Shown here: in pieces, positions 55,076 through 58,374 of the stretch
How positions within the stretch are numbered: the stretch's first letter is position 1
Layout: each line of letters starts with the position of its first letter
Sequence record: DRR378314_916
Direction: 5' to 3' (one strand)
DNA length: 64,000 bases
Program-made: the position numbers and the translations under genes
Notes under the pieces: model-generated
Seen by the model: only the letters and a program-made list of their open reading frames with translations
Databases searched by the model: none
Told to the model about the DNA's origin: nothing

Positions 55076-55438
55076 TTAAGCGAGGGCAGCCTTGGCCTGT
55101 TTGACCAGGGCGCCAAATGCTTCCGGCTCGCGCACGGCAATGTCGGCCATGACCTTGCGGTCGACCTCGATGCCGGCTTTCGTCAGGCCGTTGATGAACT
55201 GGGAGTAGTTCATCTCGTCATCATGGATGCGCACAGCGGCGTTGATGCGCTGGATCCAGAGCGAGCGGAACTTCCGCTTCTTCACCTTGCGGCCGACATA
55301 GGCGTACTGACCGGCTTCCCAGACGGACTGGTGCGCGATGCGGAACGTATTCTTGCGGCGGTTACGGAAACCCTTTGCCTGCTTCAGAATTTTCTTGTGG
55401 CGGGCGTGGGCGGGAACTTTGTTACGTGAACGGGGCAT
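55076..55438 (-). CDS. rplT: 50S ribosomal protein L20
   Basis: [37 protein letters not shown]. Confidence 0.97.
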
Positions 55439-55475: not shown

Positions 55476-55679
55476 CTAGAGGCCGTAGGGCAGGAATTTC
55501 TTCACAACGCGAGCCACATCAGCTTTCGCAGCGACTTTCGTGCCGCGGTTCTGGCGGATGTACTTGGAATTGTGGCTGATCAGACGGTGACGCTTACCTG
55601 CGACGCCGTGCTTCAGCTTTCCGGTTGCCGTGATCTTGAACCGCTTTGCAGCGGCCTTTTTGGTCTTCATCTTCGGCAT
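55476..55679 (-). CDS. rpmI: 50S ribosomal protein L35
   Basis: MPKMKTKKAAAKRFKITATGK. Confidence 0.97.
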   Translation of the reverse strand: MPKMKTKKAAAKRFKITATGKLKHGVAGKRHRLISHNSKYIRQNRGTKVAAKADVARVVKKFLPYGL

Positions 55680-55775
55680 TTCATGTCTCCTGTATGCGAG
55701 CTCTCACCGTAAAGGCGGCCCAAGGTTCATGAGCTGGAGGGCATGCCGTTCGCCCAAACCGCTCGGAAGAGGCGG

Positions 55776-55804
55776 CTTATGACGGATCAGGACCGGAGAA
55801 TCAA
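55776..55804 (-). promoter_or_regulatory. putative sigma70 promoter of rpmI-rplT
   Basis: TTGATT-N17-CATAAG on the minus strand. Confidence 0.55.
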
Positions 55805-55908
55805 GAGGCCAATATGCTGTTACTGCGGGGGATTTCGCATATGGCTTGCCGCAACTTGCCAGCAACCGTAAGGTCCACCCTTGTTATAAAGTTTCAGGGG
55901 CAGATTTC

Positions 55909-57420
55909 ATGCGCACACTCCTCCTCGCCGCCTGTATGGCGGTCTTCGCCTTGCCGGGCCTTGCCGACGACACCGCCAATGGCAAGACAGACCCTGCCGA
56001 CATCCCGGACGCGCAGGTGTTCACGTCTGACCACTCGCTGCGCCTCGGCTCAAAAACCGTGAAATACAGGACCGTCGCCAGCGAAACCTATCTGCGCAAC
56101 GAAAAGGACGAGCCGACGGCCTCTGTCTTTTCTGTCGCCTATGTCGACACCGGCACGACCAGTGCCGCGCAGCGCCCGGTGACCTTCGTGTTCAATGGGG
56201 GGCCGGGCTCTGCCTCGCTCTGGCTGCACATGGGCGCCTTCGGGCCGAAACAGGTCCTCACCCCGTCAGACGCCTCTGATGTGGGCGCACCGCCCTACAC
56301 GATGCGGGACAATCCAAACTCCCTGCTGGATGTCACCGATCTCGTTTTCATTGATCCGGTCGGCACGGGCTATTCCCGCCCGCTGGGTGAGACGGAGGGC
56401 AAGGAATTCTACGGCGTGAATGAGGATGCCGAGAGCATCGCTGAATTCATCCGCATCTGGCTGACCGAGAATGGCCGCTGGAATAGCCCGAAATACCTCG
56501 CCGGCGAAAGCTATGGCACCACGCGGGCCGCCGCACTGACCGAAAAGCTGCAAGGTGGCTGGAACGGCATCGGCCTGAACGGCGTGATCCTGATATCCGC
56601 AATCCTGGATTTCCAGACCGCCCGTTTTGCGCCGGGCAATGACACCGCCCACCTCGCCTTCTTCCCCACCGAAGCCGCCACCGCCTGGCATCATGGCAAG
56701 GCCAACAAGGCCAAGTGGAACAATGATTTCGACACCTTCATCGACGACGCGCGCAATTATGCCACCGACACGCTGGCCCCTGCCCTGATCCGTGGCTCAA
56801 CGCTGAGCGAAGCCGACGAGATTCGCATCGCGCAGGAAATGAGCGATTTCATCGGCCTGTCACCGGAATGGATTCGTCTTGCCAATCTGCGCGTTGATCC
56901 GCATCGCTTCCGCAAGGAACTCCTGCGCCGCGAAGGCTATACGGTTGGCCGCTTCGACAGCCGCTACAAAGGCGTGGACAGCGAAGGCACGGGCGAGACG
57001 CCAGAGAATGATCCGTCCGGCTACGGCATGGATGTCGCCTATGTCGCCGCGATCAATGACTATCTGACCCGTGAATTGAAGGTGGACTTCACCCGTCCGT
57101 ACAAGGTGCTGACAGGCGAGCCAGGCTCCCAGTGGAACTGGAGCGTCAACCAGCAGGGCTGGCCATCCTATGTCAATGTCGCCCCCTGGCTCGGCAAGGG
57201 CATGCGGGAGAACACCGATCTGCGCGTCCTGCTGGCCTCCGGCTGGTATGATCTGGCCACGCCATTCTTCGGAGCAGAAATGTCCCTACGCAAGAATGGC
57301 GTCGTGCTCGATCGGGTCGAGTTCGACTATTATGATTCCGGCCACATGATGTATCTCGCCGAAAGCGACGGCAAGAAACTGTCCGATGACGTGCGGGACT
57401 TCATCCGCGCCGGTCAGTAG
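55909..57420 (+). CDS. S10 family serine carboxypeptidase
   Basis: signal peptide; FNGGPGSAS, IDPVGTGYS, GESYG, YDLATP, SGHMMY. Confidence 0.93.
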   Translation: MRTLLLAACMAVFALPGLADDTANGKTDPADIPDAQVFTSDHSLRLGSKTVKYRTVASETYLRNEKDEPTASVFSVAYVDTGTTSAAQRPVTFVFNGGPGSASLWLHMGAFGPKQVLTPSDASDVGAPPYTMRDNPNSLLDVTDLVFIDPVGTGYSRPLGETEGKEFYGVNEDAESIAEFIRIWLTENGRWNSPKYLAGESYGTTRAAALTEKLQGGWNGIGLNGVILISAILDFQTARFAPGNDTAHLAFFPTEAATAWHHGKANKAKWNNDFDTFIDDARNYATDTLAPALIRGSTLSEADEIRIAQEMSDFIGLSPEWIRLANLRVDPHRFRKELLRREGYTVGRFDSRYKGVDSEGTGETPENDPSGYGMDVAYVAAINDYLTRELKVDFTRPYKVLTGEPGSQWNWSVNQQGWPSYVNVAPWLGKGMRENTDLRVLLASGWYDLATPFFGAEMSLRKNGVVLDRVEFDYYDSGHMMYLAESDGKKLSDDVRDFIRAGQ

Positions 57421-57436
57421 TCCAGGCAGGAAACTC

Positions 57437-57713
57437 GCGTCAGACTGGGGATGGGCTGCCCGCTTGTCCCCGGCCTGAACGCAAGCGTTACCGGCGATTC
57501 CGCCTTCCCAATCCGACAGCCATTCGCGTCGTGCATTCTGTCCCCGTCATTCCGGTGCCTGGCGTCATCGGAATGGGGATTTGACGAATCCCGGTGAGCG
57601 GAAGAGGCAGGGTCGCTACCTGTATACTTCCTGACTACCTCCTGTTTCGCGGCCTCGTCTCTCCGCTCGCAACACACAAAAAAACCGGAGGGCTGGTGGC
57701 CCGTCCGGCTTTT
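57437..57713 (+). ncRNA. candidate structured non-coding RNA
   Basis: three long hairpins whose G-U pairs favour the + strand, a CU-rich loop and a terminal terminator-like hairpin; no credible ORF. Confidence 0.4.
57678..57713. terminator. bidirectional intrinsic terminator downstream of infC
   Basis: A7-CCGGAGGGC-loop-GCCCGTCCGG-CTTTT. Confidence 0.8.
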
Positions 57714-57737
57714 CGTGCTGGCTTGTGTCAGCGGCAA

Positions 57738-58277
57738 TCAGCGTGGTGCGAGCACCATGGTCATCTGACGGCCTTCGAGTTTCGGCTCCAGTTCCACTTT
57801 CGCCGTTTCCTCGAAATCGGTCTTCACCCGGTTCAGCAATTCCATGCCGAGATGCTGGTGCGCCATTTCACGTCCGCGAAAACGCAGGGTGACTTTCACC
57901 TTGTCGCCGGCCTCGAAGAAGCGCGCCATCGCTTTGGCCTTCACGCCATAATCATGCGTGTCGATGTTCGGGCGCATCTTGATCTCTTTGAGTTCGGAAG
58001 ACTTCTGCTTTTTCTTCGCAGCGGCCTTCTTCTTGCGCTCTTCGAACCGAAGCTTGCCATAGTCGAGAATCTTGACGACGGGCACTTCCTGGTTGGGAGA
58101 TACCTCCACGAGATCCATTGCGGCTTCCCGGGCTGCGTCCAGCGCAGCCGTCAGGGGCATCACGCCCTGCTTTTCACCGTTCTCATCAATCAAGAGAACC
58201 TTGGCGGCGCGAATGTCATCATTGATACGTGGGCCGGCGGACTTCTGTGGTCCCCCGGTGTCTGGTCTGCGAGCTAT
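57738..58277 (-). CDS. infC: translation initiation factor IF-3, ATA start codon
   Basis: [39 protein letters not shown]7-ATA in frame gives [20 protein letters not shown]. Confidence 0.95.
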
Positions 58278-58374
58278 GGCGAATCTCCTTTATCGCTGTT
58301 TCAGTTATGCTGAATATGCCCATTATTGTTGGGATCTTCAAGGCGGACGGCCATTCTACACTTCAGCCGCCACG

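Follow-up and report, generated by a model that had tools for sequence, protein, structure and literature searches.

A predicted small RNA gene convergent to infC belongs to a structured, multi-copy family in Hyphomonas

In the DNA stretch analysed here (64,000 nt of the record DRR378314_916, referred to below as the window), we are fairly confident that the gap between an S10 serine carboxypeptidase gene and infC carries, on the + strand, an independently transcribed sRNA gene that is one member of a family. It is likely, and we say this with a little less assurance, that the element (~57546–57714, +) is the gene of a base-pairing sRNA of ~170 nt that represents an undescribed Hyphomonas family and is probably Hfq-dependent; on the base-pairing and Hfq mechanism taken by itself, our judgement is evenly balanced. 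The initial annotation of the gap had proposed a single multi-hairpin ncRNA of ~280 nt. All of its stems were found at or near the positions given for them, but they make up two separate features and not one unit: the conserved unit is only ~170 nt long, and hairpin 1, which is situated upstream of a promoter-like motif, appears to act as the terminator of the peptidase gene. The two flanking genes named there were confirmed by Pfam matches. The features to which the text refers are the following (window coordinates, strand, description).

55076–55438, −: rplT (Pfam)
55476–55679, −: rpmI (Pfam)
55846–57420, +: S10 serine carboxypeptidase gene (Pfam Peptidase_S10, E = 1.6e-13), upstream of the sRNA and co-oriented with it
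57437–57482, +: hairpin 1 with its outer pairs (core 57445–57473), a G+C-rich stem of 12 bp
57512–57517, +: putative −35-like element TCCGAC, part of a conserved motif
57534–57539, +: putative −10-like element CATTCT, at a spacing of 16 nt from TCCGAC and ~7 nt before the first hairpin of the sRNA
57546–57714 (about), +: predicted sRNA of ~169 nt with both ends predicted, the conserved unit in the alignment of 21 copies (A1)
57548–57575, +: SL1, hairpin 2 of the initial annotation, CAUUCCGGUG/CAUCGGAAUG, 10 bp with an 8-nt loop
57576–57592, +: SL2, GGGAUU/AAUCCC, 6 bp with a 5-nt loop
57594–57670, +: SL3, hairpin 3 of the initial annotation, a basal stem that closes off an inner hairpin plus a long unpaired stretch
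57608–57622, +: SL3a, a hairpin inside SL3 (stem CAGG/CCUG) that has the conserved loop GUCGCUA; across the family, both-sided change was seen in each of the 4 pairs
57623–57648, +: unpaired C/U-rich stretch, CUUCCU ... ACCUCCU, the probable seed
57671–57684, +: A/C-rich single-stranded spacer AACACACAAAAAAA
57685–57713, +: intrinsic terminator (hairpin 57685–57709) with one bulged G, preceded by A7 and followed by UUUU
57738–58289, −: infC (IF3; Pfam IF3_N and IF3_C), convergent to the sRNA

Folding of the element and the strand it favours

The gap extends over 317 nt from the peptidase stop codon to that of infC, the latter at a distance of 22 nt from position 57715, where the covariance-model core ends. 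When compared with shuffled sequences, the whole gap folds beyond chance (z = −3.65 on the + strand and −2.25 on the − strand), and the 169-nt unit within it reaches a minimum free energy (MFE) of −75.5 kcal/mol with z = −4.38 on the + and −3.18 on the − strand. Folding of alignment A1, which comprises 21 distinct copies, with RNAalifold yielded a consensus of 35 pairs, and compensatory changes were found in 12 of them. In a larger alignment (A6) 51 members were aligned to the covariance model and the pairs were counted with a hand-written structure. In this set 94.6% of the cells pair, compared to 36–47% when the partners are slid by 1–3 columns, in an alignment that is fitted to the structure of the model and leans towards it. 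Both-sided change was observed in 10 of the 25 pairs, with 125 such cells, among members that are related to each other, against a mean of 41 in the shuffles; 0 of 500 shuffles reached the observed values. The covariation in relatives is thus visible in both data sets, and the comparison shows that, as judged from the aligned sequences, the architecture has been kept by compensatory changes in 51 copies that belong to six subfamilies and occupy many unrelated loci.

The individual stems of the initial annotation fared differently in this comparison. Its hairpin 2 does exist, but over 57548–57575 and not over 57541–57579, the outer CCCC/GGGG extension being not conserved; the pairs of the remaining SL1 helix change on both sides in relatives, and one of them occurs as GC (8), UA (5) and CG (4). 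The GGGATT/AATCCC stem (57576–57592) is present as well, though not as a competitor of hairpin 2: SL2 is a conserved helix of its own, kept with compensatory changes from GC to CG, and the D subfamily has an equivalent hairpin. The long hairpin 3 is found at 57594–57670, but the comparison supports only ~9 basal pairs and the inner hairpin at 57608–57622 instead of a stem of 20 bp. The basal stem is paired in 96.9% of the cells (51 members) and shows both-sided change in 4 of its 9 pairs. The loop of the inner hairpin SL3a is nearly invariant as GUCGCNA across the family, and its stem is longer in the D subfamily, where it covaries (ACGA/TCGT, ACAG/CTGT, ACATA/TATGT). The C/U-rich stretch that follows is largely free of pairs in both the MFE and the centroid structure; it varies between species and subfamilies and is C-rich in every subfamily. 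In one MAG copy linked to infC (L057:1085–1233) SL1 is absent, missing exactly between two CATGG repeats, which points either to an artefact of assembly or to a natural deletion variant.

The bidirectional terminator was found where it had been proposed. The A run before the hairpin and the UUUU after it make it usable in both directions. It has the form of a Rho-independent terminator with a U tail, though this tail consists of only 4 U. Its helix is paired in 94.1% of the cells among the 51 members, one pair being GC in 24, AU in 19 and CG in 3 cases, and in all aligned members the same two helical segments flank the unpaired, bulged G. A simple terminator scan flagged no terminator at the element, which is explained by the bulge. 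Just past the U run (57714–57722 in the window, and in most paralogues) the word GTGCTGG is conserved across the subfamilies, though the RNA should end earlier; the CCGGCA ahead of SL3 would be a possible pairing partner for it.

The G-U wobbles that the initial annotation had taken as a sign of selection on a + strand RNA are borne out at the level of the family: the consensus pairs contain 68 G.U cells, which pair only on the + strand, against 9 A.C cells, which pair only on the − strand, and this excess favours the + strand. The alignment folds with −36.9 kcal/mol and 35 pairs on the + strand and with −31.0 kcal/mol and 27 pairs on the − strand, where, in the consensus fold of the reverse-complemented alignment, SL1 and SL2 vanish. 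Among the 21 members 16 fold better on the + strand, while 5 fold slightly better on the − strand.

The opposite orientation has some points in its favour. The structure could be an element of the infC-rpmI-rplT transcript, either of the infC 3′ UTR or of the leader of the L35/L20 genes, with the + strand features being incidental. Two loci (L004 and L006) have the element placed between infC and the rpmI leader with everything on one strand, in the window rpmI and rplT are found on the − strand only 2 kb away, and the − strand itself folds beyond chance (z = −3.18 for the unit). Against this, a − strand transcript would meet the terminator first, directly after infC, and the rest of the element would not be transcribed; the paralogues are found at loci unrelated to infC or rpmI; the wobble asymmetry (68 to 9) and the loss of SL1 and SL2 both run counter to a − strand RNA; and the element stays with infC where the peptidase gene parts infC from rpmI. 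We consider this reading very improbable. A coding reading was rejected, as L002 does not preserve the 107-aa open frame found on the − strand.

Promoter-like motif and transcription

A −10-like hexamer precedes the first hairpin by ~7 nt in every subfamily, being CATTCT in the window and CATAAT, TAATAT or TATTAT elsewhere, and TCCGAC or a close variant stands 16 nt further upstream. Within the 130 nt upstream of the core, the pattern TCCN[AG]C-N15-17-[TC]ANNNT was found in the sense orientation in 40 of the 51 members and in the antisense orientation in 1 of 51, with 1.1 predicted from shuffles; the pattern was defined post hoc from the same, related sequences, and the count is a matter of consistency rather than independent proof. 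A scan for the strict sigma-70 consensus flagged no promoter at the element.

Upstream of this motif lies hairpin 1, which is present at 57437–57482 as the initial annotation had it and begins 17 nt past the stop codon of the peptidase gene. Hairpins of different sequence are found at the same place in L002 and L003. In L003 the hairpin is then followed by TTTT, and in the window it has no U run. Judging from this position, outside the conserved part of the gap and upstream of the conserved promoter-like motif, hairpin 1 is a predicted terminator-type hairpin of the S10 peptidase gene and no part of the sRNA.

The initial annotation had left it undecided whether the regulatory RNA that it postulated is independent or 3′UTR-derived. 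The structure, the strand asymmetry and the promoter-like motif support an RNA whose function would be regulatory, and the independent alternative is favoured by the motif also preceding paralogues whose loci are unrelated. That the RNA is here mainly processed from the 3′ UTR of the peptidase mRNA, and is not made from its own promoter, seems to us scarcely credible. The peptidase gene is indeed located upstream on the same strand, and the lack of a U run after hairpin 1 in the window makes read-through possible; however, the unit and its motif are the same in genomes that have no co-oriented peptidase gene upstream, and in L003 the TTTT after hairpin 1 speaks against read-through. Some processing of this kind could coexist with transcription from an own promoter.

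The stretch is present in metatranscriptome contigs of two studies, these being contigs that carry neither strand nor ends and for which DNA carry-over is possible. Library X1 has contigs on 56900–58288 with none over 57487–57499, library X2 has a single contig of 1381 nt over 56926–58300, and libraries X9 and X15 contain chiefly infC pieces, many of them from other organisms. Only the occurrence of the stretch in RNA libraries is drawn on here, and neither the gap in coverage nor the depth serves as evidence.

In the D subfamily the conservation extends ~110 nt further upstream of the promoter. With up to 3 mismatches, this D upstream motif was found solely before sRNA copies in G081, G082 and G093; no protein gene in these three genomes is preceded by it, so that it gives no clue to a regulator. 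In this common upstream part the D copies (L095, L108–L114, L118 and L119) have the word TTATCC..CAC, found again at the −35 position, and two CAGGAA words spaced by 10 nt, which look like a putative regulator binding site.

Neighbours, copies and distribution in Hyphomonas

The genus Hyphomonas and related bacteria are marine, form stalks and divide by budding. The genome nearest to the window (G001) is 97–98% identical to it over the gap region, and a 211-nt stretch that was compared is identical to an H. atlantica record. When a 601-nt query spanning the gap was compared across the Hyphomonas genomes, full-length matches were confined to G001, G011 and G008, where the peptidase gene is present too; G017, G022, G006, G020, G010, G012 and G007 match the part from ~57533 to 57723. 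The neighbour on the other side of the element varies and may be the S10 peptidase gene, the gene of an I78-inhibitor lipoprotein or the rpmI leader: the element directly follows infC and precedes the conserved rpmI leader in L004 and L006, and it stands behind a small I78 lipoprotein gene overlapping the infC stop in L009, L011, L010 and L013. In many Hyphomonas genomes the unit thus stays with infC while its other neighbour changes.

Some peculiarities of this region may be recorded here. The S10 peptidase gene, which separates infC from rpmI in no genomes but those of the window, G001, G011 and G008, interrupts a region from infC to rpmI-rplT that is contiguous elsewhere. In other Hyphomonas genomes infC is followed by a gene for a 128-aa I78 peptidase-inhibitor lipoprotein (L009:1660–2046), the start of which overlaps the infC stop (ATGA), so near the same spot one lineage carries a peptidase and another a peptidase inhibitor. 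The infC frame is open over 183 codons, its first ATG, GTG or TTG would give only 151 aa, and the IF3_N match starts from profile position 13; presumably this short product within a longer open frame fits the unusual start codon known for infC. Upstream of rpmI (window ~55680–55845, −, e.g. 55750–55775) the stretch …CCGCTCGGAAGAGGCGG… recurs in front of rpmI in L004 and L005; in the scan of the 64-kb window it had no Rfam match, and it may represent a conserved L35/L20 operon leader.

For the search in further genomes a covariance model (R1) was built from SL3 and the terminator. It has only 19 pairs and no proper terminator helix, because MAFFT shifted the terminator arm in several rows. The sRNA core of the window scores 113 bits with this model. 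Matches to R1 were obtained in 39 of 80 Hyphomonas genomes (26 of the 51 high-quality ones), with 1–9 copies per matching genome and mostly 1–4; G001 has 2, the infC copy and another one at C12. The highest numbers belong to two fragmented MAGs, G081 with 9 and G093 with 8 copies, some of which are located at contig ends (e.g. G081:C42:3-128 and G093:C146:1-76) and in this resemble near-identical repeats at which assemblies break. In a draw of 151 genomes from the whole order, searched with the stricter filters of Infernal, R1 matched 7 of the 11 Hyphomonas genomes and 0 of 140 from 39 other genera. The family is restricted to Hyphomonas among the genomes searched. When all species genomes were scanned for the exact pattern, 29 loci were obtained: 21 belong to Hyphomonas, Hyphomonadaceae or alphaproteobacterial MAGs, and the other 8, from unrelated groups, look like coding sequence.

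The copies were sorted by eye into six subfamilies, which have in common the plan of three hairpins, the GUCGCNA hairpin, GCGGC, the terminator and, on the 3′ side of SL3, a flank that resembles CGCUACA; subfamily B departs from the plan in having only one 5′ hairpin. Their placement was evaluated at 41 loci, with the real frame chosen by GC3 and with some miscalls, for example of the small I78 gene after infC. The gene past the terminator is convergent in 27 of the 41 loci, several of which are orthologous, making the independent contexts fewer, and in 22 of those 27 the convergent stop codon is 2–28 nt from the end of the core. In the remaining 14 the frame call is mostly unreliable, or a gene begins past the terminator. 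The upstream gene is co-oriented in 30 of the 41. The typical order is therefore that of the window, gene, sRNA, convergent gene, which fits a terminator used from both sides.

A repeated or mobile DNA element could show a similar placement; REP-type repeats also tend to sit behind genes. Were the family an element of this kind (REP/BIME- or MITE-like) inserted between convergent genes, its hairpins would matter as DNA or as terminators only. Such a reading could appeal to the 9 and 8 copies of G081 and G093, some at contig ends, to a cassette of ~330 nt that is common to the copies while their flanks are unrelated, and to the end of the cassette lying 2–28 nt from a convergent stop codon in 22 of the 41 loci. 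As in REP/BIME, the copies are extragenic, form hairpins, often stand behind converging genes and occur more than once. We nevertheless hold it to be quite improbable. The initial annotation had itself named degenerate copies of a REP-like repeat as a possible explanation, but G001 holds a single BLAST copy (the others have E of 0.08 or worse) and only two by the covariance model, and with at most 9 copies elsewhere the numbers remain far below the tens to hundreds per genome that REP/BIME palindromes reach. The unit of 170–330 nt is much longer than a palindrome of 20–40 nt, visual inspection of an alignment of 14 copies revealed no terminal inverted repeats, a promoter-like motif is kept in front, and the same site is occupied in different species, e.g. 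in L109 and L113. The diverged copies keep their pairs by compensatory changes and with a G.U asymmetry, which implies selection on a + strand RNA and sets them apart from REP/BIME. An empty site was sought for one D copy and none was recovered, its two flanking genes not being neighbours in other genomes.

Candidate mechanism and relation to known RNAs

If the element is a base-pairing sRNA, its action may be pictured as follows. Transcription would start from its own promoter, with TCCGAC and, after 16 nt, CATTCT placed ~7 nt before the first hairpin, and would end at the terminator, which would also serve the convergent infC. The RNA would then act in trans, its C/U-rich stretch pairing with the purine-rich ribosome-binding sites of mRNAs, and this pairing, probably with the help of Hfq, would alter the translation or the stability of the target mRNAs. 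In other bacteria an unpaired C-rich stretch is a usual mark of a seed, and the CUUCCU ... ACCUCCU of the window has the letters of what we take to be the anti-Shine-Dalgarno end of 16S rRNA at its 3′ end. Since the C-rich stretch differs from one subfamily to the next within a constant scaffold, the siblings probably differ in their targets. An hfq gene is present in G001 (104 bits), and ProQ was not found there. A search with RNAduplex, in which the C/U-rich stretch was compared with all 50-nt windows of the 64-kb window, made no ribosome-binding site stand out; apart from the trivial antisense match, the energies were ruled by G+C content.

This null result, and the constancy of certain parts, could also be expected from a scaffold RNA that acts by binding a protein. 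The near-invariant parts, namely the loop GUCGCNA, the GCGGC a few dozen nucleotides later and the terminator with its bulged G, would in this case form the platform or the tertiary fold, and the C-rich stretch would be only a linker. The CGC of the loop and the downstream GCG (in GCGGC) are kept in 48 of the 51 members and may possibly form a pseudoknot, and the subfamilies, though diverged in their other parts, are unusually uniform in the terminator sequence and its bulged G. On the other hand, the loop-to-GCGGC pairing shows no both-sided change among the 51 members, the C-rich stretch is kept unpaired in every subfamily, no conserved neighbouring protein gene accompanies the copies, and ProQ was not found in G001. 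We regard a protein-binding scaffold, the chief competitor of the pairing mechanism, as unlikely.

A tentative extension of the base-pairing reading, which we put forward as rather doubtful, combines both kinds of features. The unit would be a self-contained cassette of regulatory region, promoter, scaffold and bidirectional terminator that has been multiplied to as many as nine copies per genome, each within a few bases of the stop codon of an unrelated, convergent gene; its constant scaffold, with the GUCGCNA hairpin, a possible pseudoknot to GCGGC and the bulged-G terminator, would dock a dedicated partner protein and its C-rich guide would be exchanged from one subfamily to another, giving 'programmable' regulators under one signal. 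With a defined gene, a motif, a covarying structure and siblings whose different C-rich stretches invite the mapping of targets, the family offers a well-supported starting point. It would also illustrate that an sRNA gene can at the same time terminate the gene next to it, here the essential infC, and that such a gene can spread within a genus.

As to known families, the 64-kb window gave 0 matches at the gathering score to the 4227 models of Rfam 15, which include alphaproteobacterial sRNAs and ribosomal-protein leaders, and at E up to 10 only chance-level matches to eukaryotic or viral families appeared; the paralogues had no match either. The statement of the initial annotation that no SRP, tmRNA or RNase P signature is present therefore holds, and no known RNA family matches the element. 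Readings as 6S, SRP, tmRNA, RNase P RNA or a riboswitch were rejected on this ground and because the downstream gene is convergent. A 5′ leader or riboswitch needs a co-oriented downstream gene, whereas infC is convergent, as is the downstream gene in 27 of the 41 loci. A full-text search of a collection of papers, judged by titles and the beginnings of abstracts, gave no description of a Hyphomonas sRNA; one paper tabulates REP counts for H. jannaschiana. We conclude that the family is previously undescribed and that the kind of element is ordinary.

Its closest likeness in kind is to AbcR1/2 and the CcsR 'cuckoo' RNAs, the alphaproteobacterial, Hfq-dependent and anti-Shine-Dalgarno RNAs. Like these, the Hyphomonas element is intergenic, with a putative promoter of its own, several hairpins, an intrinsic terminator and sibling copies, and it has unpaired C/U-rich motifs that are probably complementary to ribosome-binding sites. 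Unlike them, it matches no Rfam model, those of these families included; its C-rich stretch is placed inside a long hairpin beside the GUCGCNA hairpin and not in simple apical loops; and its copies are dispersed, not in tandem, and confined to one genus among the genomes searched. The sibling families Qrr1–5 of Vibrio and LhrC1–5 of Listeria, whose members have a promoter type in common, resemble the Hyphomonas family in having two to nine paralogues with a common scaffold and a conserved upstream control region. There is no homology to either, and in contrast to both the putative pairing stretch of the Hyphomonas RNAs differs between the subfamilies while the scaffold is constant; with LhrC the family shares, in addition, candidate pairing motifs that are C-rich.
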